Shown: piece by piece, positions 674-61,207 of the stretch
Numbering within the stretch: position 1 is the first letter of the stretch
How the letters are laid out: each line of letters starts with the position of its first letter
Assembly: GCA_945882015.1 (NCBI GenBank)
Contig: CAMCVM010000001.1
Location: forward strand, 76,763 to 140,762
Reading direction: 5' to 3'
DNA from: a candidate division TM6 bacterium GW2011_GWF2_32_72
GTDB lineage: Bacteria; Babelota; Babeliae; Babelales; CAIQNR01
Length of the DNA: 64,000 bases
Program-made: the position numbers and the translations under genes
Notes under the pieces: model-generated
What the model was told of the DNA's origin: nothing
What the model saw: only the letters and a program-made list of their open reading frames with translations
Databases searched by the model: none

Positions 674-1969
674 CTAGTCTAAATTGATTCCCAACCATCG
701 ATCCAGAATAATGGCAATTGCAGAACGGACCGAAAGATGATTAAAATCAGAAAATCCTTGTACTGGTAGTAAAAGGTAATCAGACCGTTCTATGACCTGT
801 GGCGCAAGCCCTTTTGCTGTTCCAAAAATAAACAGAACTGGTCGTTCATGAGCCCATACCTTGCTTTGCTCGTTAAATTTAATAAGTTCAGCATGGCCCA
901 CAGATCGAGCTGAAGTCCCGACTATCAAAGGCTTTTTGCCTTCTTTTTGTTCAATACTTTCAAGTACGTCTTGTAACGAATCTTTTAACGTAACTATTTT
1001 TACTGCTTCATGCCGCTGTTTATTATAATCGATGCCTGCATTGGCCCAAAAATCTAAAACAGTGGCTACAATCTTTTTTTGATCTTGTAACGGTGTAACT
1101 AAAAAATATTCCTTAATACCATACGTTCTTCCTGAACGAGCAATATCATGAATATCTAACGAAGTAACAGACGATGTCCCTACTTGATCCTGTTGTATAA
1201 TCACTTTATCATGTAACAGTGCAATATAATGGTTAGGGATAAATTCAGTGGCAAGCTTTTTGTCTTCTTGCTTGGTGCAATGAGCACGTAACCAACCAAA
1301 ATGCTTTTTTACCGTTTGCTCTGCTGCACAACGTTTTCTAAAAAGATCAACCTGGCCATGATTTCCTGACAATAAAATTTCTGGAATAGCCTTACCATTC
1401 CATTCACGTGGAGGAACAGTAAATGTCGGAAAATCAACAAAAGATCCTGAAAAAGAATCTTCTTGAACTGATTCAGCTTTACCCACAACACCTGGTACAT
1501 AACGCAATACTGCTTCTAACAGTACCATTGCCGGTAAATCGCCGCCCATCAAAATATAGTCCCCAATTGAAATCTCAAGATCTGCATATGCCTCTTGCGC
1601 TCGAGCATCGATACCTTCGTATCTGCCGGCAACTAACATAACATGCTGTTTTTCTTGAAAAACCTGAGCAAGTTCCATTACTTTTTTTTGATTAAGCTTT
1701 TGTCCTTGAGGGGTCAAAAAAATTCGATATGCTTTGCCATGCTTTGCTTCAAGGCCATCAACCACTCGTTCCATTACTTCAGGACGAATTGCCATTCCTG
1801 AGCCATGCCCAGCTGTTTGTCCATCAAGTCGCTCTTTTGGTTGACAATAATCAGAAAAACCAGCGACATCAAACGTTACAAGCTCTTGTTCTTGAGCCCG
1901 TCCGATGAGACTGGTTTTTAAAAAATCTTGATAAAGCTTTGGAAATACCGTTACAACAGAAATCTTCAT
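674..1969 (-). CDS. trmD: tRNA (guanine37-N1)-methyltransferase TrmD fused to a C-terminal TM1570/Methyltrn_RNA_4-like SPOUT domain
   Basis: N-terminal ~235 aa: MKISVVTVFP...AGRYEGIDARA...GDYILMGGDLPAMVLLEAV...LLSGNHGQV (TrmD hallmarks). C-terminal ~180 aa: LDIHDIARSGRTYG...FGTAKGL...NHLSVRSAIAIILDRWLG (second SPOUT family). ATG overlaps rpsP stop by 1 nt (TAATG, 1967-1971). Confidence 0.85.
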   Translation of the reverse strand: MKISVVTVFPKLYQDFLKTSLIGRAQEQELVTFDVAGFSDYCQPKERLDGQTAGHGSGMAIRPEVMERVVDGLEAKHGKAYRIFLTPQGQKLNQKKVMELAQVFQEKQHVMLVAGRYEGIDARAQEAYADLEISIGDYILMGGDLPAMVLLEAVLRYVPGVVGKAESVQEDSFSGSFVDFPTFTVPPREWNGKAIPEILLSGNHGQVDLFRKRCAAEQTVKKHFGWLRAHCTKQEDKKLATEFIPNHYIALLHDKVIIQQDQVGTSSVTSLDIHDIARSGRTYGIKEYFLVTPLQDQKKIVATVLDFWANAGIDYNKQRHEAVKIVTLKDSLQDVLESIEQKEGKKPLIVGTSARSVGHAELIKFNEQSKVWAHERPVLFIFGTAKGLAPQVIERSDYLLLPVQGFSDFNHLSVRSAIAIILDRWLGINLD

Positions 1970-10390: not shown

Positions 10391-10620
10391 AACCTTTATT
10401 TAAAATGATTGATATTTAGTAGATATAAAAAATTTTTACAGTATAGACAAGATTATTATTTTTTTACAAAAATATCGAACGCTTTTAAAAGAAGAGTCAA
10501 TAATAAAAAATAAAAAAACAATTGACCTTTTCAGTTTGAAAGATTCATACTTAAAACAATAAATTAATCCATAATTAAAAATGTTTTATTTTTTAAACAA
10601 TATTTTTGATAGGAAATACT

Positions 10621-12231
10621 ATGAAAAAATTCTTAGTTTTTTTTGTAATAATAAGTTTTTTTTTCAATAGCAGATCTGCAAGTTCACATCTGGCGGAATT
10701 TGAAGAAAAAACCCTTAGTATGTTAAAATCTTTAACCCAACCAGAAGCATCATCTGATCTTCCTTTCTCTCCAAGCAATGCAGCTTACTCTGCTGATGGC
10801 CAATTACTAGAAATTGACCCTGCAACGACTATCTTAGCTCAAGAAACTTACTGGACTAGCGATGGCACTCTTATTCCGATTACTGCCCTAAGAAGGGAGT
10901 ATGGAATAACTCTCATTAATCATAAAAACAATCAAAGAGCTGAATCTACTGCCACACATTTAAATTGGCCAATCGATCCATCTCAGTTTTCAAACCCTTT
11001 TCATCCTGCTTCAGTGTCACTTCATCCTCATCAATTAAGAGTTGCCTTTACTCACAATCAAGGAAATCTTGTTTTTATTAATTTCACCCGCAACAATTTT
11101 TCTGTTACAGAAAAGGCTCATAGTCATACAACTGCATGTCATGAAGGGGTTGGCCCTCAAATTCTTTTTGGACCAAAAGATTTATTTGCAAGCGAACTAC
11201 ATGGGCAAGTATGCATTTATAATGAAGATAACCCTGAAGGAAAAATAATTACCCATGCTTTTAGTCCGTTTGATAGGCCATTAGCAGACAGCTCTGAAGA
11301 AAGTCTTGTATTAGATCATCAATTACATGAAAATAATAAAAATACTTGTGTTATTAAATTTAATCCCGATCCTCGCAATGAACAATTAGTAGTGCACTAT
11401 AACAACAATCTTTATATTTTTGATGGAAGAACAGGAGAAATTCAAACAAGAATCAGCGATACTCAACCAATCAGTAGCTTTACAAGGCGCGGTGAAGAAT
11501 TTGTATATCTGCAAAATAATAATGAACTTATCACTCTTAATACACAAAATTTAGAACCTCATAGGTTAATAGGAGGCCATACTAATATTATAGAACAAAT
11601 AACCTGTTGCCCCTTTAGTAATCCTCTCCTTCTTATTTTAAGCGGTAATTCCGATAAAAAAACCATAGCTATTTATGATATTTATAAAGGAAAAATCTTA
11701 GAATCAAGTGACCCTAATTTTAAAAAAGTCCAATGGGTACCTAATACAAAAACCATTTCTGCGTGTACAAATCCAGAAAACAATGTTCCTCAAATCAAAC
11801 AATGGGATCTTGACCAAACATCTGCAACTTATCAGTATGCTCAAGAAGATCACGGTGCATTTAACATCAATAAAATAAATTTTTTTGATAGTTTAATCTG
11901 GCAAATCAATAATGGTGCAATTCTTGAACTGCAAGATGGGCAAGATCTATCTGAAACTTTTTCTCAATTTCCATCTGAAGTACAATTAGAATTGCTTGCA
12001 ACAGGAAAAATTATTTTTTCTGAGCCTAATTTATTGCCTGAAGATCAAGATGGACCTAACTATGGAGATACCCCCCCACCTGCATATGATGATATTTTTC
12101 TAGATAGAGTTGGAGGTGAAAGAAGTCTTACAACAACAAATCCAGAAGTAGAAAACCCCCAACAAAGACCTTCGCGTTTTCAAAGATTTTTAGCGCTTAT
12201 TGGCTTTAGACGATTACAGGATAATCACTGA
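10621..12231 (+). CDS. Secreted WD40/beta-propeller-like protein, hypothetical
   Basis: ATG 10621 preceded by AGGAAA; MKKFLVFFVIISFFFNSRSASS signal; WD-like units (GHTNIIEQITCCPF...KTIAIYDIYKGK; VPQIKQWDL); C-terminal tail with PPPAY. Confidence 0.55.
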   Translation: MKKFLVFFVIISFFFNSRSASSHLAEFEEKTLSMLKSLTQPEASSDLPFSPSNAAYSADGQLLEIDPATTILAQETYWTSDGTLIPITALRREYGITLINHKNNQRAESTATHLNWPIDPSQFSNPFHPASVSLHPHQLRVAFTHNQGNLVFINFTRNNFSVTEKAHSHTTACHEGVGPQILFGPKDLFASELHGQVCIYNEDNPEGKIITHAFSPFDRPLADSSEESLVLDHQLHENNKNTCVIKFNPDPRNEQLVVHYNNNLYIFDGRTGEIQTRISDTQPISSFTRRGEEFVYLQNNNELITLNTQNLEPHRLIGGHTNIIEQITCCPFSNPLLLILSGNSDKKTIAIYDIYKGKILESSDPNFKKVQWVPNTKTISACTNPENNVPQIKQWDLDQTSATYQYAQEDHGAFNINKINFFDSLIWQINNGAILELQDGQDLSETFSQFPSEVQLELLATGKIIFSEPNLLPEDQDGPNYGDTPPPAYDDIFLDRVGGERSLTTTNPEVENPQQRPSRFQRFLALIGFRRLQDNH

Positions 12232-13161: not shown

Positions 13162-13492
13162 AATTATTGCACTGGTTTTTGGGTATACGTTATGGACAAC
13201 TATGAGCGAACATAATAAAGTACAAGTTACTCTGCAAGCCCCCTTATCTTTTTATAATCAATCGGGCTTAGAAGTTGAAGGTCCAGAATCTATTCTTGTC
13301 ACAGTTACTGGCAAACGGGACTCACTGTATCAGTTAACACGTAACCTTGCCGTACACATTAATGCAGACAATCTTAACGAAGGTCCAAATACTATTGCAC
13401 CCCTTGAAAAAGATTTGCTTTTACCTGAAGCAGTAAAACTAGTACACTGTAGTCCACAAACTATAACTGTAAATGCAAAGAAACATGCCTAA
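13115..13492 (+). CDS. YbbR-domain protein (CdaR-like), single domain
   Basis: ATG 13115 preceded by AAGGAG; N-terminal anchor LSLKIIALVFGYTLW, then a YbbR-like beta domain (VQVTLQAPLSFYN...ILVTVTGKRDSL...AVHINADNLNEGPNT...PQTITVNAKK); overlaps the upstream gene by 47 nt and glmM by 1 nt. Confidence 0.6.
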   Translation: MQPDTKSHPLNNLSLKIIALVFGYTLWTTMSEHNKVQVTLQAPLSFYNQSGLEVEGPESILVTVTGKRDSLYQLTRNLAVHINADNLNEGPNTIAPLEKDLLLPEAVKLVHCSPQTITVNAKKHA

Positions 13493-14817
13493 TGCAAGAA
13501 ATTTTCGGAACTGATGGAATTCGTACACAAATTGGGAAAGAACCACTGACTGCGCCCAAATTATTGCAACTTGCAAGCGCTATTGGGAAATGGTTAACCA
13601 CTGAAAAAAAAAATGCTTCTCTTGCTTTAGGGTATGACACTCGTTATTCAAGTGCACTCTGCAAAGCTTCGCTAAAAGCTGGTTTATTACAATACCCAAT
13701 TAAAGTCACTGATTGTTCAATAACACCAACTCCCGTTTTGCAACAGTATGTTACTGCCCATAATTATGACCTGGGAATTATGATCACTGCTTCACACAAT
13801 AAAGCATGCGACAATGGCATTAAACTTTTTACAGCCAATGGAAAAATAAGCAAAACTGATCAAGCAATCATTACACAATTATTTCATGAAGATACTTTTG
13901 AAGTTGATTACGATAATCTTGGACAAGAAATTCACAACAGTATGGTGCAAGCTTGGAACTTAGAGCGATTGGCTACATTTTTTAAAAAAAATTTCTTACA
14001 AGGTATAACCATTGTCCTTGATTACGCACATGGTGCCTATTGGCCATCAGCATTACAAGTTTTTGAATTTTTTGGAGCAACAGTAATTTCTTTGCATAAC
14101 AACCCTAATGGAAAAAACATTAATGAACAATGCGGATCCCTGTATCCGCAAGAGTTACAAAAAGCTGTGATTGCTCATCAAGCAGCTATCGGTTTTGCTT
14201 TTGATGGAGATGGAGACAGAGTAATTATCGTCAATCAAGATGGGGTCATTAAAGATGGGGACGACATTCTTGGCTTTTTACAACTGAATCCTTACTATAG
14301 CCAACAAACAACTGCTGTAACCACCGTTATGGCAAATCAAGGACTGATTGAATACTTTAAAAGCAATAATAAAACATTACTGCAAACGCCAGTTGGTGAT
14401 ACTTTTGTAATTGAAAAATTAAAAGAACATAAACTCCTTTTAGGCGCAGAACCGTCTGGGCATGTCATCCTTGGAGACAATAATTATATATCTGACGGTC
14501 TTTTTACAGCACTACGTGTTTGTCAAACTGCTTTACTTGTTAAAAATTTCAAAGTTGAAACTTTTGAAAAATTCCCTCAAATTATGATTAATGTTCCTGT
14601 TAGTTGCAAAAAAGATTTAACACAATGGCCTTTTTGCCAAGTGATTGAAGAACACCAAAAAATGCTTACCAAAGGAAGAGTATTAGTACGTTATTCAGGA
14701 ACTGAACCATTATTACGTATTATGATTGAAACAGTTGATGCACAAGAAGCACACAAGATTGCAAATCTCCTTTCTACAAATCTTATTAATGCTTTACAAA
14801 ACAAGGAAAATCAATGA
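13492..14817 (+). CDS. glmM: Phosphoglucosamine mutase
   Basis: MQEIFGTDGIRT..., active-site loop ITASHNKACDNGIKLF, metal loop FDGDGDR, GAEPSGH, RYSGTEPLLRIM. Confidence 0.9.
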   Translation: MQEIFGTDGIRTQIGKEPLTAPKLLQLASAIGKWLTTEKKNASLALGYDTRYSSALCKASLKAGLLQYPIKVTDCSITPTPVLQQYVTAHNYDLGIMITASHNKACDNGIKLFTANGKISKTDQAIITQLFHEDTFEVDYDNLGQEIHNSMVQAWNLERLATFFKKNFLQGITIVLDYAHGAYWPSALQVFEFFGATVISLHNNPNGKNINEQCGSLYPQELQKAVIAHQAAIGFAFDGDGDRVIIVNQDGVIKDGDDILGFLQLNPYYSQQTTAVTTVMANQGLIEYFKSNNKTLLQTPVGDTFVIEKLKEHKLLLGAEPSGHVILGDNNYISDGLFTALRVCQTALLVKNFKVETFEKFPQIMINVPVSCKKDLTQWPFCQVIEEHQKMLTKGRVLVRYSGTEPLLRIMIETVDAQEAHKIANLLSTNLINALQNKENQ

Positions 14818-15654: not shown

Positions 15655-17628
15655 ATGTCAGAAAAACTGTTCAATGATTCTTTAATAGACTCAGAGACTC
15701 CGGTTCAAGATTCAGGTATCACCTTTGATCAATTAGGGCTTTCAAGCACAACTTTACAAGCACTTAAGGCTAAAGGGTTTACAAAACCAAGTCCAATTCA
15801 AGCGTTAACTATTCCAATTTTACTAAAAAATGAAAAAGACGTTATTGGTCAAGCACAGACAGGAACTGGTAAAACAGCTGCTTTTGCGCTTCCTTTAATT
15901 GATATTTTAGAAGGACAAAGCAAGACCCCTAAAGCAATTATTTTAACCCCAACTCGTGAGCTTGCTTTACAAGTTTCACAAGAAATTGAATCTTTAAAAG
16001 GAAGCAAACGAATCACTGTTTTAGCTGTTTACGGCGGACAATCAATTGTTACTCAATTTAGAGATTTAAAAAGAGGCGCTGACATTGTTGTTGGAACTCC
16101 TGGTCGTATTTTAGACCACATTCAACGTGAAACGTTATATCTTGATGACATTACTCATGTTATTCTTGATGAAGCTGATGAAATGTTAAATCGTGGTTTT
16201 TTACCTGATATTCAAGCAATCTTAAAATGTACTCATGCTTCACGCCGTACTATTTTATTTTCTGCTACTATGTCACCAGAAATTCTTAAAATTGCAAAAC
16301 AATATATGGGTGAATACGAACTACTTAAAGTTGCTCAAAATCAATTGACCTGTACTTCTGTTGAACAATTTTATTTTGAAGTTCCATTCCAAGATCGTTT
16401 TAGCGCATTGTCTCGTATTATTGCGAGTGAAAATCCTTTTTATGGACTTATCTTCTGCCGCACAAAACGACACACTGAACAACTTGCTCGACAACTTGCT
16501 GAATGTGGATACCATGCTGACGCGCTTAACGGTGACATGTCACAAAGCGCTCGTGAAAAGATTTTAGACAAATTTAAAAGCAAACTGATCACTATTTTAG
16601 TTGCAACTGACGTTGCAGCACGTGGAATTGACATTAAAGATGTTACTCATGTTATTAACTACTCGCTTCCTGAAGAACCTGAAATCTATGTTCACCGTAT
16701 TGGAAGAACAGGAAGAGCAGGTAAAATTGGAAAAGCATTTTCATTAGTCCCACCTGCAGATAGACATCGCCTTGCTTTAATTGAAAGAACTACAAAGTTG
16801 AAAATTCAAAAAGGGCAATTACCTTCATCAGAAGATATTATTGCACAAAAAAAAGAAACTATTTTTGCTGAACTTGAAAAAAGCTTAGAAAAAGCTCCTC
16901 AAGAATATTACATCAAAATTGCTTCTGAACTGTTAGAAAAACATCCAGCTCAACCATTGATTGCGTTACTCTTAAAACGCGCATTTAAAAGCCAACTAGA
17001 ACAACAAGATTTTTCTAAAATGAATATTGTAGAAGAACCAGAACGTCGTGGTGGCAGACGTGGTGATTCAGGCCGTGGTGGCGAAGGTCGCTCTGAAAGA
17101 TCAGGCGGCGGGCAAAGAGGATTCTTTAACCGTAAAAGCAATACTAAAAACTCACGTGGTGGTTCATCAGAAGGCGGCTTTAAAAAAAGACGTGATTTCT
17201 CAAATGACGCTTCATCAACTTCATCAGAAGGTGGTTTTAGAAAACGTGAATACTCAAACGATCGTCCTTCAGAAGGCGGATTCAGAAAACGCCCTGAATA
17301 CTCAAATGATCGCTCATCGTCTTCATCAGAAGGTGGGTTCAGAAAGCGTGAGTACTCAAACGACCGTCCATCATCAGAAGGCGGATTTAGAAAACGTGAA
17401 TATTCAAACGATCGCTCATCATCTTCATCAGAAGGTGGGTTTAAAAAACGTGAATACTCAAACAACCGTCCATCAGAAGGCGGATTCAGAAAACGCCCTG
17501 AATATTCAAATGATCGCTCATCGTCTTCATCAGAAGGTGGTTTTAAAAAAAGATCTAACTCATCAACCGGTAATAGCGGCTATGCAGGTAACTCTGACAG
17601 CTTTAAAAGAAGAAGCAGCCGCCCTTAA
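15655..17628 (+). CDS. DEAD-box ATP-dependent RNA helicase (DeaD/CsdA-like) with R/G/S-rich repetitive C-terminal tail
   Basis: Q-motif GFTKPSPIQ, AQTGTGKT, PTRELA, VLDEADEML, SAT, ATDVAARGID, HRIGRTGRAG; tail from about residue 463 (RRGGRRGDSGRGGEG...). Confidence 0.9.
   Translation: MSEKLFNDSLIDSETPVQDSGITFDQLGLSSTTLQALKAKGFTKPSPIQALTIPILLKNEKDVIGQAQTGTGKTAAFALPLIDILEGQSKTPKAIILTPTRELALQVSQEIESLKGSKRITVLAVYGGQSIVTQFRDLKRGADIVVGTPGRILDHIQRETLYLDDITHVILDEADEMLNRGFLPDIQAILKCTHASRRTILFSATMSPEILKIAKQYMGEYELLKVAQNQLTCTSVEQFYFEVPFQDRFSALSRIIASENPFYGLIFCRTKRHTEQLARQLAECGYHADALNGDMSQSAREKILDKFKSKLITILVATDVAARGIDIKDVTHVINYSLPEEPEIYVHRIGRTGRAGKIGKAFSLVPPADRHRLALIERTTKLKIQKGQLPSSEDIIAQKKETIFAELEKSLEKAPQEYYIKIASELLEKHPAQPLIALLLKRAFKSQLEQQDFSKMNIVEEPERRGGRRGDSGRGGEGRSERSGGGQRGFFNRKSNTKNSRGGSSEGGFKKRRDFSNDASSTSSEGGFRKREYSNDRPSEGGFRKRPEYSNDRSSSSSEGGFRKREYSNDRPSSEGGFRKREYSNDRSSSSSEGGFKKREYSNNRPSEGGFRKRPEYSNDRSSSSSEGGFKKRSNSSTGNSGYAGNSDSFKRRSSRP
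17167..17553 (+). repeat. In-frame tandem coding repeat, 8 copies of SEGGF(R/K)KR(P)EYSN(D/N)R(S)n
   Basis: TCAGAAGG(C/T)GG recurs at 17167, 17224, 17269, 17326, 17374, 17428, 17473 and 17530 (spacings 57, 45, 57, 48, 54, 45, 57 nt). Confidence 0.85.
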
Positions 17629-17647
17629 AAGCACTGTTTAATAGCTA

Positions 17648-17683
17648 TAAAAAAAGACACTCTTAATCGAGTGTCTTTTTTTA
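17648..17683. terminator. Bidirectional rho-independent terminator between convergent genes
   Basis: AGACACTC (17655-17662) / GAGTGTCT (17669-17676), 6-nt loop, A-run upstream and T-run downstream. Confidence 0.65.
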
Positions 17684-17718
17684 TGAGGATCTTTTTCAAC
17701 GTCCGCGCCTCTGAAAAA

Positions 17719-18078
17719 TTATCTGTTTTTAGCTTGATGCACTTTTGGTGTGCTTGTTCTATGACTACCACGATCACGATTTCTATGTGCTGGAGTATCA
17801 TTTCTTACTTGCTTATTACATTTTGGATTAGGCTTTTGAACAAAAGTTTTTTGGTTATTTTTTTGAAATAATGCCTTGTTTTTATTTCTTTGTTGTGCTT
17901 TTTGTTCTGCTTGCTGAGCTTGCAAAGCTGCCATTCTTAATATTTTTTGCTGTTCTTGACGGTTTCTTTCTTCTTGTGCAATTTGCTGTTGTGCAAAAGC
18001 AGCTTGCTCAAAACATAGCGCCTTTATTTGAGAGTATCCAAACATTACTAATAACACTAAAAAACTTGTTTGCTTCAT
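17719..18078 (-). CDS. Small secreted basic Q/K/R-rich protein (family member 1)
   Basis: MKQTSFLVLLVMFGYSQIKA signal; Q/K/R-rich helix, single Cys (PKCNKQVRND), basic tail; resembles the product of 18191-18508. Confidence 0.55.
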   Translation of the reverse strand: MKQTSFLVLLVMFGYSQIKALCFEQAAFAQQQIAQEERNRQEQQKILRMAALQAQQAEQKAQQRNKNKALFQKNNQKTFVQKPNPKCNKQVRNDTPAHRNRDRGSHRTSTPKVHQAKNR

Positions 18079-18124
18079 TGATAGATCCTTTATATAAAAT
18101 AGATTAACTGCATACGATTATAAT

Positions 18125-18158
18125 AAAAAAGACACTCTTTTACAAAGTGTCTTTTTTA
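18125..18158 (-). terminator. Rho-independent terminator (also bidirectional in form)
   Basis: AAAGACACT (18128-18136) / AGTGTCTTT (18146-18154), flanked by an A-run and a T-run; left arm AAAAAAGACACTCTT is identical to the one at 17650-17664. Confidence 0.6.
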
Positions 18159-18190
18159 TTGATTACCATCAGTAATTTATTCAATAGGTT

Positions 18191-18508
18191 TTATTTTTTA
18201 TACCAAGATCCAGCAGCACCTCTACTATTATGGTTATTTCTAGAGGTTTGCTGTCCTTTACAATTAGCCTGACTAGCTTTTCTTTGCGCTTTCAAAGCTT
18301 GTTTTTCTGCTTTTTTCAACTGCTGTTTTCTATCTTTTTCTTGTTTTTTTCTTTGCTGGTCTAATGCTAACTGTCTTTGCGCTGGTACTTCTAACTGTAC
18401 GTGAGCAAGTAATGCTGCAAGCGGTAAAATATCTGACCCTAAGCCTTCACCCCCTTTAATTGACCAAAAAGAAAACGCTGTCAGAATTATTAAAATTTGT
18501 TTGTTCAT
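18191..18508 (-). CDS. Small secreted basic Q/K/R-rich protein (family member 2)
   Basis: MNKQILIILTAFSFWSIKGG signal; QRKKQEKDRKQQLKKAEKQALKAQRKASQANCKGQQTSRNNHNSRG. Confidence 0.55.
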   Translation of the reverse strand: MNKQILIILTAFSFWSIKGGEGLGSDILPLAALLAHVQLEVPAQRQLALDQQRKKQEKDRKQQLKKAEKQALKAQRKASQANCKGQQTSRNNHNSRGAAGSWYKK

Positions 18509-18536
18509 AATCTATAAAATTTCTGATTAATTATTA

Positions 18537-18914
18537 TTAATTATCATCTTCGTCAGTGTAGCCATCCTGATAATTTTCATCATCAGAATTTACATCGCCA
18601 GCCTTTTTTGCAGCTAGACCATTTCTTTGTCTTTGAGTTTCAAATTGCGCTTTACGACGAGCGTTTGCATTTTGAGCTCTTTTATTTTTTTGTACTTGTT
18701 GTCCTGGTTTCAATCCTAGCACAGGAGCGTCTTCTTCGTCATCCCCTAAAAAAAGTCTTCTACCGCCTTTAAAATGTGTATGCTGCTGTTTGTGAAATCC
18801 AGCTGCAAGTTGTTCTGCTTTGTCATTCTGAGGGCTTCTTTTACCATTTTGCTCCATAGCCTGCGTCGCTTGACATGCCAATAAGAAAACGATTGCAAAT
18901 AATTTTTTCGTCAT
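18537..18914 (-). CDS. Small secreted protein with basic core and acidic tail (possible family member 3)
   Basis: MTKKLFAIVFLLACQATQA signal; QKNKRAQNANARRKAQFETQRQRNG; C-terminus SDDENYQDGYTDEDDN. Confidence 0.55.
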   Translation of the reverse strand: MTKKLFAIVFLLACQATQAMEQNGKRSPQNDKAEQLAAGFHKQQHTHFKGGRRLFLGDDEEDAPVLGLKPGQQVQKNKRAQNANARRKAQFETQRQRNGLAAKKAGDVNSDDENYQDGYTDEDDN

Positions 18915-19088
18915 AAAAACCTTTTAAATAAGTATAGTTATTGTGATACATGTTTACATTGTGTTACGCAACTATATTTACATTTTATTTGATTGTACAA
19001 ATTTTATACTGCATTGAAATTTGTAAATGGACTGTTAGTATAACTAAGCTTATAAAAAAATACTAGTTTAATACTATTTTTTTTCATG

Positions 19089-19505
19089 TTACAAATTATT
19101 ATTAATAGCTGAAAGAATTTTAAGTCTTGCTCTTGCTAAGATTGCAGCTTCAATTTTACGTTCAGAATCAATAAATTCTGTACTTCGTTGTGTTATAATT
19201 TGGTCTTCTTTGCATAGATTAATATTTAATATGCGTATTGTTAATCCATTTTCAACTGTAATTATTTGCTGCATATAATTAAGGGTAAATAGTCTTTTGT
19301 CATCAAAAATATCTAAAATTTTAAAAGTATTTTTCAAATCTCTTATTTCATGTAAAGGCATTTTTAAAAGTTTTTTTATAATTTCTTGTTCTGTGTTTTT
19401 TAAGACAAATTCATCAAAGTTAGCAAGCTCGTTTGATAAAGTGTGAGATTCTGCTGCTTGTAAAGCAGTATAACCGAATAAAAAAATACTCAAAAGTAGT
19501 TTCAT
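19089..19505 (-). CDS. Secreted hypothetical protein
   Basis: MKLLLSIFLFGYTALQAAES signal; ATGA overlap (19502-19505) with the upstream small ORF. Confidence 0.5.
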   Translation of the reverse strand: MKLLLSIFLFGYTALQAAESHTLSNELANFDEFVLKNTEQEIIKKLLKMPLHEIRDLKNTFKILDIFDDKRLFTLNYMQQIITVENGLTIRILNINLCKEDQIITQRSTEFIDSERKIEAAILARARLKILSAINNNL

Positions 19506-19702
19506 TGTTTTGGATCTTTAGCGTCTGATTGTTGAGTAGTATTGTTTTTAGCTGGCTTTGCTGCATTTTTTTCTTGTGCTTTTGCTATAATTCTAAAAAG
19601 GGTATCAAAAGAAGGTGGCTTCAAATCAGCTTTTTGAGCTTTATCCATTGCTGCTATCAGTAAACTGTTACCTAAAAACAATAATCCTAATAACAATTTC
19701 AT
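19502..19702 (-). CDS. Small secreted hypothetical protein (66 aa)
   Basis: MKLLLGLLFLGNSLLIAAMD signal; K/A/Q-rich; translationally coupled to 19089-19505. Confidence 0.45.
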   Translation of the reverse strand: MKLLLGLLFLGNSLLIAAMDKAQKADLKPPSFDTLFRIIAKAQEKNAAKPAKNNTTQQSDAKDPKQ

Positions 19703-19720
19703 GGGTTATCCTTATCTTTT

Positions 19721-20656
19721 TTAAAATTCCTTATTCATAAACTTATGATAAAAAAGTTCAAGCGCTAAAGAAGAACCGCCCGTTTTGACGTGGCAATCAA
19801 CTTGATATAAAAAGTCATGCGCTGCCTGTAATTCTTTGCCTGTTGTTGTCTGCCAATCTTTTTGCATAAAAGAAAAGGGTAATCGGTAGCTCATCTGTTT
19901 TGCCTCTTGTAACTTCTGTTTATTTCTCAGCATAACAACATGATACGCCCGCCACAATTGTTCTGACCAATAAACTGTCCAAAAGGGCTCACTGTAATCA
20001 TTCTTAAGGCCAATCCATGTCCGGTAAAACATATCTTTTTTTCGAGAAAAAAAAGATTGTGCTAAAATAAAAAGCGATTCTTCTGGTTGGACAATTTTTT
20101 CATACCAGGTCCTCATAAAAAGCTCAGTTTTATCCCCCAAAACTATACTGTATTGCCCTAAAAGAATAATCATGTCCAATGATAAGGTTTTATAATTTTG
20201 CTTTATCATCCCCAAAAATCTTCGAGCATCGGTTGCCCATAAAAATTCAAACAGATTATCAAGATCTGCGGGACTTAAAGGTTCATTAAGAATAATAACA
20301 GGACTTTGTGTTTCAAACTGTTCTTTTTCGTTAATAAAGCACAAAACGGTATGTGGACCAGAATATGTCTTAAAATGCTCAAGTAACTCTTTTTTATAAG
20401 AAACAGATAATTCTGAAATATCACCAAGCCATAATATTTGAACTGAACCTAGAAAAGTTGTTGCCAAGGTTGCTTGCAACTGAGACCAATCATATTCTTG
20501 TAGATTAATAACCTTAAAAAATGGATTAGCCTTTTTTAATTTTGCCACTAATTGTGAAAAAAATAAAAGAGGATACTCATTACTTTTAAAATAGATAACA
20601 GGCGATTGTAATGGTTGTTGGTTACTACATTTGAGTAAAAAAGTTTTTAGTTTCAT
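19721..20656 (-). CDS. holA: DNA polymerase III subunit delta (probable)
   Basis: 311 aa. By-eye alignment to E. coli HolA: DWSQLQATLATTFLGSVQILWLGD against DWNAIFSLCQAMSLFASRQTLLLL, and the C-terminal LQAAHDFLYQVDCHVKTGGSSLALELF against the delta C-terminal helix. Confidence 0.55.
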   Translation of the reverse strand: MKLKTFLLKCSNQQPLQSPVIYFKSNEYPLLFFSQLVAKLKKANPFFKVINLQEYDWSQLQATLATTFLGSVQILWLGDISELSVSYKKELLEHFKTYSGPHTVLCFINEKEQFETQSPVIILNEPLSPADLDNLFEFLWATDARRFLGMIKQNYKTLSLDMIILLGQYSIVLGDKTELFMRTWYEKIVQPEESLFILAQSFFSRKKDMFYRTWIGLKNDYSEPFWTVYWSEQLWRAYHVVMLRNKQKLQEAKQMSYRLPFSFMQKDWQTTTGKELQAAHDFLYQVDCHVKTGGSSLALELFYHKFMNKEF

Positions 20657-20695: not shown

Positions 20696-21094
20696 TTATT
20701 CTGGTTGTAATCGTGCTTGAACATGCGCACAGGCAAGAATAGTTTGTAAAGAATTCCAGCGCTTATAAGCTACGGCAGTATTTAATGCAGTATCTTGCGC
20801 CGTTGTTTTTTTTATTGGATTTGCTCCATATTCTATTAATAATCTAACTTTTTCATCCATAAACGGCCCGCCTTGTTCAAGCGTTGCAACCAAAATAATC
20901 TCTTTCATGTGATTTTTATGAGTACGGTCTTTAAGTAATTGTTGTGCTCTTAATAAATTATGTGAGTAAAACGCTTGCATTAATGGATTTTTGACGTTGT
21001 GCTCGTTAAGTTCTTGTAAATTTTTTATGGTGCCGGCACAAACAACTGACTGAAATAACAAAGAAACTAATAGAAATTTTAAAGAATTATTCAT
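20696..21094 (-). CDS. Secreted ankyrin-repeat protein
   Basis: MNNSLKFLLVSLLFQSVVCAG signal; ANK-like VRLLIEYGANPIKKTTAQDTALNTAVAYKRWNSLQTIL. Confidence 0.55.
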   Translation of the reverse strand: MNNSLKFLLVSLLFQSVVCAGTIKNLQELNEHNVKNPLMQAFYSHNLLRAQQLLKDRTHKNHMKEIILVATLEQGGPFMDEKVRLLIEYGANPIKKTTAQDTALNTAVAYKRWNSLQTILACAHVQARLQPE

Positions 21095-45049: not shown

Positions 45050-46141
45050 ATGTTCTTTTTTTTTCTTCTCTTTTGCTACTGTAGTACGCTCATGACTAAA
45101 GACCCACTTTTACTGACCAAAGAAACGCTCATCAATCAAGGCCTAAAAGTTGAAAATGTTACAGAGTCTTGGAAATTTAATGCTCAATTGTTTCCTTTAA
45201 CAGAAATGCCAGAATGGTTTTATAAAATTCCTGGCGCTTACGTTATCGAACTAACAGGAGCAACTCTTTATTCAGACAATGGCATAGTGCTCTATAATGG
45301 AAAAATTTATCAAGATTCGTTATGGACCTGGTCAGCTTTATACAAGTCTCCTAATGATCTTTTCCCTATCCCTGCTGCTATTCCAATTCAAGGTAAAGTG
45401 GCAACGATCGCTTTAGAAGGCAATTCAAATTATTATCATTGGATGACAGAAATTTTACCCCGCCTTGCACTGTTGGAACAAGCAGCTATCGACTATGATT
45501 TTTTATATGTCCCAAAACTTCAGTACCAATTTCAAAAAGATACGCTCAAATTATTAGGAGTTGATTATGAAAAAATTATTGAAGGTGTCTCAAATACCCA
45601 TATTCAACCAACAACTGTTATTTTTCCTTCTCAAGTAGCACGCTCTTGCATTACTCCTGCATGGGTAGTTGAATTTTTACAAAAACGGTTCTTACAAAGC
45701 TATCAAGTAAAAAATGGTAAAAAACGAATCTTTATTAGTCGAGGTAATGCTGCAATACGTAGAATTTTAAATGAAGATGCTATTTTTGAAATTATTAAAC
45801 CATTTGGGTTTGAAAAAGTTTTAATGGAAAAAATGTCTGTGATTGAGCAAGCACAACTTGCTCATGAAGCTGAATTTATTATCGGAACCCATGGGGCAGG
45901 GATGACCAATATAGTTTTTGCACGGCCAAACACTACTATAATTGAACTATTTCAAGAACATCTTGATCAAACTTTTTTTGATTTAAGTACAACTATGAAT
46001 CTCACGTATTATTGCATTAAAACAGAACGAATTTCTGAACTAAGTGAAGAATCGGTTGATATCAGATTTAGAAATACGTATATCAATATCGATTTAATCA
46101 AAAAAGAATTAATTGAACTATTTGAGAGACTTCAATTATAA
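45050..46141 (+). CDS. Glycosyltransferase family 61 (DUF563)-like protein with N-terminal anchor
   Basis: EGNSNYYHWMTEILPRLALL and GTHGAGMTNIVFARPNTTIIELF match the GT61/DUF563 pattern. Confidence 0.6.
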   Translation: MFFFFLLFCYCSTLMTKDPLLLTKETLINQGLKVENVTESWKFNAQLFPLTEMPEWFYKIPGAYVIELTGATLYSDNGIVLYNGKIYQDSLWTWSALYKSPNDLFPIPAAIPIQGKVATIALEGNSNYYHWMTEILPRLALLEQAAIDYDFLYVPKLQYQFQKDTLKLLGVDYEKIIEGVSNTHIQPTTVIFPSQVARSCITPAWVVEFLQKRFLQSYQVKNGKKRIFISRGNAAIRRILNEDAIFEIIKPFGFEKVLMEKMSVIEQAQLAHEAEFIIGTHGAGMTNIVFARPNTTIIELFQEHLDQTFFDLSTTMNLTYYCIKTERISELSEESVDIRFRNTYINIDLIKKELIELFERLQL

Positions 46142-46612: not shown

Positions 46613-46619
46613 ATATTAA

Positions 46620-46733
46620 CCTGGCGACACCTGCTTTCCCGGTTCGTTGCCAAACAAGTATCATCGGCGATTCAGACTTAACTACCGTATTCGAGATGGG
46701 AACGGGTGTGACCCTGAACCTATTGTCACCAAG
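46620..46733 (-). rRNA. rrf: 5S rRNA, copy A (distal)
   Basis: Reverse complement CTTGGTGACAATAGGTTCAGGGTCACACCCGTTCCCATCTCGAATACGG...GGTGTCGCCAGG; helix I closes 5' and 3' ends; boundaries +/- 3 nt. Confidence 0.85.
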
Positions 46734-46822: not shown

Positions 46823-46830
46823 TATATTAA

Positions 46831-46944
46831 CCTGGCGACACCTGCTTTCCCGGTTCGTTGCCAAACAAGTATCATCGGCGATTCAGACTTAACTGCCGTA
46901 TTCGAGATGGGAACGGGTGTGACCCTGAACCTATCGTCACCAAG
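46831..46944 (-). rRNA. rrf: 5S rRNA, copy B (proximal to 23S)
   Basis: Identical to copy A except at two positions (46895 G vs 46684 A; 46935 C vs 46724 T); 211-nt offset. Confidence 0.85.
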
Positions 46945-60049: not shown

Positions 60050-61207
60050 ATGAAACAAAGAATTGGTAAATACAGTACTCAAAAAGTAAATGGGCAAACC
60101 TACAAAGCTTATATCCCCGCTGCGCTTCCCCCTCAGCCTGCTCTTGACCTTACTTATTTATTTCCTCATCTAGAAAAAGCAACCTTACAACTTGCTCAAT
60201 TAAATAATGCGAGCAAAACAGTTCCCAATCCTTCACTTTTTATTTACATGTACGTCAGAAAAGAAGCATTACTTTCAAGTCAAATTGAAGGAACTCAAAG
60301 TTCTTTTTCTGATCTTATACTGTTTGAACATGACCAAAAAACAGAAATCGCTTTAGAAGATGTTGAAGAAGTATCAAATTATGTTAAAGCCATTAACTAT
60401 GGACTGCAGCGATTAAAAGATGGTTTTCCCCTTTCTTTAAGACTTTTAAAAGAAATTCATAACATATTACTTTCTGGAAGCCGTGGTTCAGAAAAACATC
60501 CTGGTCAATTAAGACGAACACAAAATTGGATTGGGGGAACACAACCGAGTAATGCTCTTTTTGTACCACCTGCGATAGAACACCTTAATCAATGCTTAGA
60601 TGATTTTGAAAAATTTTTACACGACACAAGCTTGCCTACTTTAATTAAATCAGGGCTTGCTCATGTGCAATTTGAAACTATCCATCCCTTTTTAGATGGC
60701 AATGGAAGACTCGGAAGATTATTAATTACTTTACTCCTAGTTTCTGAAAATATTCTTGATGAACCTATTTTATATCTAAGTCTTTATTTAAAACAGAATC
60801 GCCAAAATTACTATAATTTACTACAAGAGGTACGAACTGAAGGGACATGGGAAACATGGCTAGAATTTTTCTTAGAAGGCATTTGTATCACTGCTCAACA
60901 AGCAACTGATACTATTAATCAAATTAATAATCTGTTTAAGCACGATGCTGGTAAAATTGAAACATTAGGCCGTGCAAAGTTTTCTTGCCACCAAATATTT
61001 GAGTTTATGAAAAAACTACCACAAGTGACAGTTTCATTATTAGCGCAAGAATTAGATATGACAGCACCAACAGCAAGAACCGCACTTAACCACATGGTTA
61101 ACATTGGAATTATTAAAGAAATAAGCAATAAGCAACGTGATAAAATTTATATTTATAAAAAATACTTAGATATTCTTGAAGATGGAACAAAGCCTTTAAA
61201 AGCTTGA
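60050..61207 (+). CDS. Fic-domain protein (AMPylase-type), class II with N-terminal inhibitory helix and C-terminal wHTH-like region
   Basis: HPFLDGNGR at 60683-60709; inhibitory motif S-S-Q-I-E-G at 60275-60292; length and layout resemble SoFic-type proteins. Confidence 0.85.
   Translation: MKQRIGKYSTQKVNGQTYKAYIPAALPPQPALDLTYLFPHLEKATLQLAQLNNASKTVPNPSLFIYMYVRKEALLSSQIEGTQSSFSDLILFEHDQKTEIALEDVEEVSNYVKAINYGLQRLKDGFPLSLRLLKEIHNILLSGSRGSEKHPGQLRRTQNWIGGTQPSNALFVPPAIEHLNQCLDDFEKFLHDTSLPTLIKSGLAHVQFETIHPFLDGNGRLGRLLITLLLVSENILDEPILYLSLYLKQNRQNYYNLLQEVRTEGTWETWLEFFLEGICITAQQATDTINQINNLFKHDAGKIETLGRAKFSCHQIFEFMKKLPQVTVSLLAQELDMTAPTARTALNHMVNIGIIKEISNKQRDKIYIYKKYLDILEDGTKPLKA

Follow-up and report, generated by a model that had tools for sequence, protein, structure and literature searches.

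What are five consecutive short genes, all of them encoding proteins with putative signal peptides, doing among the housekeeping genes of a Babeliales bacterium? The genes, denoted here g1 to g5, are located on the minus strand of contig CAMCVM010000001.1 (assembly GCA_945882015.1), of which we have analyzed a stretch of 64 kb, called the window below. The original prediction, made from the letters of the window, had described the gene products as small, secreted, and highly basic. The five open reading frames (ORFs) are indeed at the places claimed, with the lengths of 119, 105, 125, 138, and 66 amino acids (aa) for g1 to g5, and the peptide strings quoted in that prediction were all found in their translations. 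The cluster is a hypervariable mosaic island in an otherwise conserved core region.

The source of the window is a freshwater Candidatus Babeliales bacterium, which probably lives inside protist cells. The window sequence is contained in the European Nucleotide Archive (ENA) metagenome contig ERZ27280300 k141_1074237. Its RNase PH is identical to MFS8507216.1 of NCBI ("Candidatus Babeliales bacterium"), and MFS8507218.1 from the same taxon falls in one 90% cluster with the 311-aa protein encoded by the gene adjoining g5. Babeliales belong to Candidatus Babelota (also named Dependentiae or TM6), a phylum of obligate intracellular parasites of protists. The genes around the cluster are core ones, comprising rpoB/C, S15, PNPase, RNase PH, a DEAD-box helicase, DUF502, GlmM, and the rRNA operon; the near neighbors are RNase PH, PNPase, the helicase, and GlmM. 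No genes of mobile elements were seen near the cluster, and there is no transposase or integrase among its neighbors.

Mosaic Variation of the Cluster

The comparison covered about eight distinct haplotypes (L005, L092/L093, L096, L098, L100, L102, and L009/L010), and all identities are given relative to the window. Conservation in related genomes, on which the original prediction had been made to depend, was found for all five genes, which are syntenic in related Babeliales contigs. In particular, the syntenic cluster is present in L005, L092/L093, L096, L098, L100, and L102, and in the fetched haplotypes it always lies between the gene of the 311-aa protein and the convergent helicase gene. 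The flanking proteins are 92-100% identical, except for GlmM and the 311-aa protein (87-96%), while the cluster proteins are 37-93% identical; for the orthologs of g1, g2, and g5, the identity is 49-93%, 55-91%, and 68-92%, respectively. In L092, PNPase and the helicase are 99% identical to those of the window and the 311-aa protein is 96% identical, and the values for g1 to g5 are 49%, 55%, 46%, 37% (a split copy), and 68%.

In g3, the variation takes the form of blocks with sharp breakpoints. The window and L096, compared in steps of 40 nucleotides (nt), are 97-100% identical throughout except for ∼140 nt in g3 (18880-18775), where the identity drops to ∼45%. The upstream edge of the g3 divergence was found at 18920-18880, within the signal-peptide codons, in six of six comparisons. 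In L005 and L102, the mature part of g3 is swapped for an unrelated S/P/R-rich sequence of 162-163 aa, with ∼31 N-terminal residues shared, and these two alternative cassettes are 41% identical to each other. We considered and rejected the possibility that the alternative cassette is a frameshifted g3 of the window, as its nucleotides match those of g3 no better than at random and no other copy is present in the window. The synonymous divergence (dS) of g3 reaches 1.0-1.5 where that of the flanks is 0.1-0.4; therefore, these seem to be old (deep) alleles moved by recombination.

The gene content of the cluster varies as well. In L005, L093, and L098, g1 is separated from the terminal hairpin by a sixth signal-peptide gene (Table 1). 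This gene is missing from the window, where the 34 nt from the g1 stop codon to the hairpin (17685-17718) may be its remnant. Split or broken copies were observed for g4 in L096/L097 and L092/L093, for g2 in L007, L010, and L102, and for g3 in L097. Mutagenesis of the diversity-generating retroelement type was rejected as a source of this variation: there is no long direct repeat in 17500-19800, and the changes are not A-specific, as indels, exchange of whole cassettes, and bases of every type are involved. The scanned ORFs of the window did not include a reverse transcriptase.

Two neighboring genes vary among the same genomes. GlmM has two deep allele classes among close genomes, with the identity of 97-99.8% in L092 and L096 and of 80-81% in L005, L098, L100, and L009 (dS 0.65-0.84); therefore, recombination mosaicism reaches beyond the small-gene cluster. 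Two genes upstream of the cluster, there is another hypervariable gene, which encodes a 132-aa ankyrin-repeat protein with a signal peptide. The identity of this protein is 100% in L096 and L100, 73% in L005, 70% in L098, and 52% in L102, with dS up to 1.2. Some variants are 168 aa long, and L092 has a rearranged copy. The 311-aa protein, which has no match in Pfam or NCBIfam, is conserved and evolves with omega (the ratio of nonsynonymous to synonymous substitution rates) of 0.16-0.26.

Selection on the Five Genes

Evolution of the mature parts of the cluster proteins is near-neutral or faster. The ratio of nonsynonymous to synonymous polymorphism (pN/pS) in the mature regions is 0.88 for g1, 1.85 for g2 (by the Nei-Gojobori method, NG86), 0.56 for g3, 0.83 for g4, and 1.08 for g5, and omega of the flanks is 0.03-0.27. 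The signal-peptide codons are under purifying selection, with pN/pS of 0.17-0.35 in g1, g2, g3, and g5 (0.30 in g1 and 0.17 in g5). Positive selection on g2, suggested by its NG86 ratios above 1, is not statistically supported, as these failed likelihood-ratio tests of pairwise maximum likelihood (ML) estimates: the ML omega of g2 pairs is 0.8-3.7 and never significantly exceeds 1 (all p>0.06). At deeper divergence, the pairwise ML omega is below 1 for g1 (0.19-0.27, p<0.02), g3 (0.07-0.25, p<0.002), and g4 (0.41, p 0.02).

To see how readily the frames would be lost, the observed number of substitutions was placed at random. For the diverged pairs of g1-g3, the chance of an ORF staying open was 0.002-0.08, and the frames are open nonetheless. 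Because of the synteny, the purifying selection on signal peptides, omega below 1 at depth, and the frames kept open against the odds, the five ORFs are, as judged from the sequence comparison, real genes.

Signal Peptides, Charge, and Homologs

Signal peptides were assigned by a crude heuristic that requires K or R within the first seven residues followed by an uncharged hydrophobic stretch, and that does not formally predict cleavage. All five N-termini pass it (h=2.2-3.2), in agreement with the original prediction. The heuristic flags 12 of the 66 window ORFs, and the five cluster genes form the densest run in the window. By a similarly heuristic judgment, all five look like Sec substrates of signal peptidase I, with a charged n-region, an h-region of 8-16 residues, and small residues at -3/-1; the candidate cleavage sites read from the translations are IKA↓L, IKG↓G, TQA↓M, LQA↓A, and IAA↓M. 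The lipobox pattern [LVI][ASTVI][GAS]C is found in neither g1 nor g2. Identification of g3 as a lipoprotein, suggested by a lipobox-like string LLAC, was rejected: the string is specific to g3 of the window, and all four aligned full-length orthologs have no Cys there.

The description of the proteins as highly basic holds for g1 and g2, whose mature parts have the isoelectric point (pI) of 10.2-11.3 and the net charge of +9 to +18 in all orthologs, but not for g3, g4, and g5 (mature pI ∼7, 6.2, and 9.7, respectively). For g1, the mature pI is 10.3-11.3 in eight of eight haplotypes, and the net charge of g1 and g2 is retained despite replacement of 25-50% of amino acids. Among the flagged proteins of the window, only g1 and g2 have mature pI above 10.

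No known family had come to mind when the cluster was first described, and the searches agree: Pfam, NCBIfam, and PDB sequences yielded no match above curated cut-offs for the five proteins, the sixth gene, or the alternative g3 cassette, and no Pfam family was assigned to the five at E<=0.1. The best PDB sequence match, to a helix of a basic helix-loop-helix (bHLH) zipper protein, had E=0.057 and is not significant. Queries with g1, g2, and g4 against 5.8 billion proteins retrieved six proteins each, and all homologs whose contigs were fetched are at the same locus in related contigs. The HMMER profile of g4, run exhaustively against 1.84 billion representatives, retrieved its own cluster and one 148-aa relative, P0030. 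Thus, no family, fold, or homolog outside a narrow freshwater clade was found in these searches. A metagenome scan anchored on the 311-aa neighbor produced two loci only, both already among the haplotypes, and a helicase-anchored scan of genome collections produced, among the matches listed, only those with identity of <=55% from unrelated phyla. We have not found this family or cluster described in the literature.

The AlphaFold2 model of g2 contains helices at residues 3-18, 27-37, and 46-79, the rest being coil (mean pLDDT, the predicted local distance difference test score, 60; predicted template modeling score, pTM, 0.26); the helix at 46-79 has pLDDT of 64-80 and is followed by a disordered tail. 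For g4, the model is all-helical with low confidence (pLDDT 62), and Foldseek found no PDB match to it at E<1. The helices of g1 and g2 are very hydrophilic (mean hydrophobicity H of -0.18 to -0.46) and moderately amphipathic (maximum hydrophobic moment 0.43-0.58); for comparison, the moment of LL-37 is 0.89 and the mean H of magainin is +0.20. In these values, the two helices are unlike those peptides and similar to the coiled coil of the Braun lipoprotein Lpp.

Relatedness of g1, g2, and g3

The first two genes had been called clearly related, and here the evidence is marginal. In favor of the relationship, BLASTP aligns g1 and g2 with E=0.002, the alignment being confined to the Q/K helix, and the Smith-Waterman score exceeds those of composition-preserving shuffles (z ∼4, p ∼0.002); against it, profile-profile comparison of the mature regions by hhalign yields the probability of 2.8% over 10 columns. 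The two proteins have parallel architectures, that is, a signal peptide, a short hydrophobic stretch, a long Q/K/R/E helix, the Cys site, and a basic tail that contains an RG motif. The conserved motif of g1 is FVQKP..K.xKQVR.DT..NR. In g2, the only strongly conserved mature segment is the C-terminus, RG(A/P)AGS[WG][YFH][KR]K. The kinship of g3 with this pair, proposed in view of its basic core, is not supported, as BLASTP E-values are 53 and 32 and the shuffling p-values are 0.22 and 0.88.

The single Cys of g1 and g2 had been listed as a feature common to the pair. Among the strains it is not conserved and is the most variable site of both genes: the codon has the form TNT, each of the four bases is present at its middle position, and the residue is C, F, Y, or S. 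This is one of two four-state nucleotide columns in g1 and the sole such column in g2; in the housekeeping flanks, four-state columns occur at third codon positions only. The twin tetra-allelic codons speak in favor of g1 and g2 being homologous in position, and of a selection or mutation hotspot at this site. A tandem duplication of g1 and g2 is a tentative proposal, supported by their weak, composition-level similarity together with the common terminator stem, the common architecture, and this parallel.

Terminators, Promoters, and Spacers

As reported, there are two copies of AAAAAAGACACTCTT in the window and no more, one starting at 17650 and the other at 18125; each forms one arm of the hairpin that follows g1 or g2. 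The terminal hairpin (-20.5 kcal/mol, z -8.1) is common to the cluster and the convergent helicase gene, and is listed by the terminator scan. The internal one, after g2 (-19.7 kcal/mol, z -7.8), is kept in L093. A weak third hairpin follows g4 (-5.7 kcal/mol, z -0.8). From the repeated arm, duplication of gene-plus-terminator units had been proposed. The terminators are related, sharing a stem of 12-15 nt, but a clean duplication of units is not borne out, because the terminal hairpin also serves the helicase and, in relatives (L093), an identical hairpin comes after the sixth gene rather than after g1.

The spacers are strongly conserved, along with the promoter-like and terminator elements. 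Every strain has 93-98% identity in the g2-g1 spacer, the adjoining coding sequences being 41-96% identical (40-96% for those adjoining either of the two spacers). The g2-g1 spacer contains a promoter-like site for g1 that overlaps the g2 terminator. For the g4-g3 spacer, the identity is 96-99% in five comparisons out of six; in three of those five, the helicase-DUF502 spacer is 85-89% identical. The g4-g3 spacer is also better conserved than synonymous sites of the neighboring core genes, and the repeated TGTAAA, TTTACA, and TTGTACAA motifs in it could be operator sites. An RNA gene hidden in this region was rejected, as no Rfam family scored at the threshold in 17400-19900.

AAGGA-like ribosome-binding sites precede g1, g3, and g5. 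The start of g4 overlaps the g5 stop codon (ATGA), and g5 begins 18 nt past the stop of the 311-aa gene, which is probably co-transcribed with g5-g4. The transcription units apparently are g5-g4 (translationally coupled), g3-g2, and g1, with intrinsic terminators between them. The ORFs opposite the cluster genes are F/L-rich mirror images of the coding strand.

Possible Functions of the Cluster

Our preferred reading, which we hold with roughly even confidence, is that the five products leave the cytoplasm by Sec and work as host-interface proteins or effectors, with g1 and g2 as polycationic binders of polyanions composed of a helix and a disordered tail. The proteins would be exported by Sec, cleaved by signal peptidase I, and delivered to the cell surface or to the host by the type II secretion system or in outer-membrane vesicles, as proposed for other Dependentiae, to act at the host interface. 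Components of type II secretion are conserved in TM6 genomes (PMC4776705), and outer-membrane vesicles have been seen early in infection by the cultured Chromulinavorax destructans (PMC6561590). The mature g1 and g2 would be polycations of ∼85-100 aa, in each of which a single long, hydrophilic helix is joined to a disordered K/R/N/H tail. What they do may be set by charge and composition and not by the exact sequence; for instance, they may bind host nucleic acids or other polyanions, the nucleic-acid binding being suggested by the charge. The fast turnover would then be driven by pressure from the host or simply by low sequence constraint.

The effector role, already guessed in the original prediction, fits what is known of the organism, although the role itself we infer. 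Signal peptides are encoded by 44% of the coding sequences (CDS) of C. destructans, and among these, ORFans, that is, ORFs of no recognizable family, and ankyrin-repeat proteins are overrepresented (PMC6561590). Several observations speak against the effector reading. The signal peptides were judged by a heuristic only. In a diderm bacterium, a Sec signal by itself leads to the periplasm, so that the crossing of the outer membrane is assumed. Split or truncated copies point to genes that a strain can do without, assembly errors aside. No pair has omega significantly above 1; therefore, the rates can be explained by relaxed constraint just as well as by an arms race. Finally, the surroundings are of housekeeping type, with no recognizable pathogenicity or mobile island.

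The same Sec signal predicts the periplasm, and the proteins could be periplasmic or envelope proteins not sent to the host, with g2 resembling the lipoprotein Lpp and having its C-terminus linked or bound to peptidoglycan, and g1 binding anionic components of the envelope. We find this unlikely. On the one hand, the conserved C-terminus of g2, RGAAGS-W-Y/F/H-K/R-K, resembles the YRK end of Lpp, the helix of g2 (hydrophobic moment 0.58, mean H -0.46) is close to that of Lpp (0.49 and -0.47), and Dependentiae have a complete mur pathway and no lipopolysaccharide (LPS) genes (PMC6561590), which makes unusual envelope proteins plausible. On the other hand, the C-terminal motif is short and its similarity may be a coincidence, g2 has no lipobox and no match to Pfam LPP, and the LLAC string of g3 is not found in its four aligned orthologs. 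Moreover, structural envelope proteins are normally under strong purifying selection, unlike mature g2 with its pN/pS of ∼1.85, and the genes are split or lost in some strains. It seems quite improbable to us that these are lineage-specific ORFans which the bacterium can spare and which drift under relaxed selection, having hardly any function at present or none, with the signal peptide, promoter, and frame only weakly or transiently retained. This would agree with the mature-region omega of most g1, g2, g4, and g5 pairs, which does not differ statistically from 1, with the frequent split or truncated copies across assemblies, with the lack of the sixth gene in the window, and with the confinement of homologs to a narrow clade. 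Drift, however, is difficult to reconcile with the clear purifying selection on signal-peptide codons, with omega significantly below 1 at deeper divergence for g1, g3, and g4, with the net charge of g1 and g2 kept through the amino-acid turnover, and with the conserved regulatory DNA, and random substitutions introduce stop codons in 92-99.8% of trials (diverged pairs, g1-g3). We hold it equally doubtful that this is an arms-race locus, in which g1 and g2 would be effectors targeting the nucleus or nucleic acids and tuned at the tetra-allelic residue, g3 would be tuned by cassette exchange, and alleles would be kept by negative frequency-dependent selection and shuffled via the conserved signal-peptide and intergenic anchors.

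A conserved leader combined with a hypervariable mature peptide is a known pattern of antimicrobial peptide genes. The cluster matches it, and g1 and g2 are small, cationic, helical, and predicted to be secreted; still, we consider it very improbable that they are Sec-dependent cationic antimicrobial peptides or bacteriocins acting on competing bacteria or host microbiota. Their very hydrophilic helices lack the hydrophobic face of LL-37 or magainin, and hence the antimicrobial-like membrane activity initially listed among the candidates is disfavored. There is no adjacent immunity, ABC-transporter, or modification gene, no bacteriocin family was matched in Pfam or NCBIfam, and obligate intracellular life offers few competitors. 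A histone-like role inside the bacterium, also among those candidates, conflicts with the conserved export signals, and no such family was matched in Pfam or NCBIfam. Most improbable of all, hardly to be credited, are chance open frames in A-rich non-coding DNA, with the conserved elements being intergenic RNAs or regulatory sites: the spacers are better conserved than the ORFs and the sequence is of low complexity, but the ORFs persist from haplotype to haplotype although the odds are strongly against it, conservation of the N-terminal signal peptides goes together with synonymous changes, and the ribosome-binding sites, the ATGA overlap, the absence of Rfam hits in the region, and the mirror-image composition of the opposite-strand ORFs all speak against it.

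Features of the Cluster and of the Window

The coordinates are given in Table 1. The helicase that converges on the cluster has tandem basic repeats at its C-terminus, SEGGF(R/K)KREYSNDR(S/P), whose copy number differs among strains, the proteins being of 657, 655, 649, 643, and 630 aa; two long antisense or out-of-frame ORFs are by-products of this repeat. Farther from the cluster, two tandem 5S rRNA genes with equal Rfam scores close a complete 16S-tRNA(Ile)-tRNA(Ala)-23S operon. A protein of the Fic/DOC family with Fic_N and Fic domains is a possible AMPylating effector or toxin. A 431-aa ORF fuses TrmD (tRNA m1G methyltransferase) with the domain Methyltrn_RNA_4 of an RNA methyltransferase dependent on S-adenosylmethionine (SAM). 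Glycosyltransferases of family 61 are mostly eukaryotic, and a protein with such a domain and a hydrophobic N-terminus may be a host-like enzyme. In addition, a 541-aa protein with a signal peptide has weak WD40/beta-propeller matches and is reduced to 403 aa in L092 and L093.

Table 1. Coordinates of the cluster, its regulatory elements, and other features (window positions unless a contig is named)
Feature	Position	Strand	Description
g1	17719-18078	-	119 aa; putative signal peptide aa 1-21 (nt 18078-18016), Q/E/R/K-rich helix, basic tail
g1 codon 87	17818-17820	-	TGT (Cys); TGT/TTT/TAT/TCT among 8 haplotypes
g2	18191-18508	-	105 aa; putative signal peptide aa 1-19, hydrophobic helix aa 27-37, charged helix, disordered basic tail (predicted)
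g2 long charged helix	18373-18272	-	aa 46-79 (predicted)
g2 codon 83	18260-18262	-	TGT (Cys); TGT/TTT/TAT/TCT among strains
g3	18537-18914	-	125 aa; putative signal peptide, basic core, acidic tail (DDENYQDGYTDEDDN); neutral overall
Hypervariable block in g3	18770-18885	-	roughly codons 10-48
g4	19089-19505	-	138 aa; putative signal peptide, slightly acidic mature part, predicted all-helical
g5	19502-19702	-	66 aa; putative signal peptide, A/K/Q-rich mature peptide
Sixth gene	L005:10328-10696, L093:1950-2444, L098:5359-5730		122-164 aa, K/E/L-rich, no family match
Terminal hairpin	17647-17684		bidirectional intrinsic terminator; 16-nt arms, 100% complementary; A-tract/T-tract flanks
Internal hairpin after g2	18122-18160		terminator; perfect 15-nt arms; stem AAAAAAGACACT as in 17647-17684
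g2-g1 spacer	18079-18190		conserved
Promoter-like site for g1	18117-18145	-	TTGTAA-17-TATAAT, 10/12 matches
g4-g3 spacer	18915-19088	-	conserved; weak hairpin, promoter-like site, repeated motifs
311-aa protein	19721-20656	-	upstream of g5
Ankyrin-repeat protein	20696-21094	-	132 aa
GlmM	13492-14817	+	two allele classes
DEAD-box helicase	15655-17628	+	repeats in region 16900-17600
By-product ORFs of the helicase repeat	16950-17465, 17048-17641		antisense or out-of-frame
TrmD fusion	674-1969	-	431 aa
Protein with weak WD40/beta-propeller matches	10606-12231	+	541 aa
Glycosyltransferase family 61 protein	45050-46141	+
5S rRNA genes	46619-46733, 46830-46944	-	tandem pair
Fic/DOC-family protein	60050-61207	+

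Comparison with Known Systems

The cluster is of a kind already known, as ORFans with signal peptides are a recognized hallmark of Dependentiae; the strain-level mosaic, the g3 cassettes, and the twin tetra-allelic codon are new and modestly surprising. Similar to the signal-peptide ORFans of C. destructans, which belongs to the same phylum and order, the cluster proteins have a Sec-type signal and no recognizable family, are encoded near a secreted ankyrin-repeat protein, and have the presumed role in host manipulation. Unlike the present case, that class was described in bulk, with no account of strain-level hypervariability or mosaic structure (PMC6561590).

In architecture and presumed function, the cluster proteins are similar to the SVM/SAP effectors of phytoplasmas, sharing with them the small mature part, the conserved Sec signal, and the variability of the mature part. 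Phytoplasma proteins such as SAP11, SAP54/phyllogen, TENGU, and the SVM proteins are small (less than ∼150 aa when mature), with a conserved Sec signal and a variable mature part. They are helical or coiled-coil and basic, have stretches resembling nuclear localization signals (SAP11), and are produced by obligately intracellular bacteria with reduced genomes. There is, however, no sequence similarity to them and no Pfam match such as SVM_signal. Moreover, phytoplasmas lack an outer membrane, so that Sec export equals secretion, whereas Dependentiae are diderm; and phytoplasma effector genes reside in mobile PMU regions, while the Babeliales cluster is placed among housekeeping genes.

The Braun lipoprotein Lpp of Escherichia coli ends in YRK-COOH, its terminal Lys being covalently linked by L,D-transpeptidases to mDAP of peptidoglycan. 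Like Lpp, g2 is small and predicted to be exported and helical, and its orthologs end in WYKK, WYRK, WYK, WFK, GYKK, or WHKK. Unlike Lpp, it has no lipobox or acylated Cys and no Pfam LPP match, carries a predicted disordered basic tail, and evolves at or above the neutral rate. The histone H1-like proteins Hc1 and Hc2 of chlamydiae, also obligate intracellular bacteria, are very basic, rich in K, R, A, and Q, of low complexity, and bind nucleic acids. They are cytoplasmic and have no signal peptide, in contrast to g1 and g2 with their conserved signal peptides and no Pfam match.

Implications for Dependentiae

Dependentiae are widespread and almost uncultured parasites of protists, in which nearly half of the genes encode signal-peptide proteins of unknown function. 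The cluster can be recognized by its conserved flanks, signal peptides, and terminators, and thus gives a handle on this unexplored exported proteome. It indicates that some Dependentiae ORFans are real genes, with recombination mosaics and alternative cassettes, and that the core genome around them evolves much more slowly. Products that do reach the host would be candidates for effectors, and their genes markers for strain typing; if the products stay out of the host, the cluster would be an example of turnover in exported polycations under low constraint. Should the arms-race reading be true, no locus of host interaction would have been defined at the population level in Dependentiae before this one. 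Either way, the advance is incremental and not a new principle: a set of small, probably exported proteins, whose genes change quickly within a stable core, is added to what is known of these parasites.

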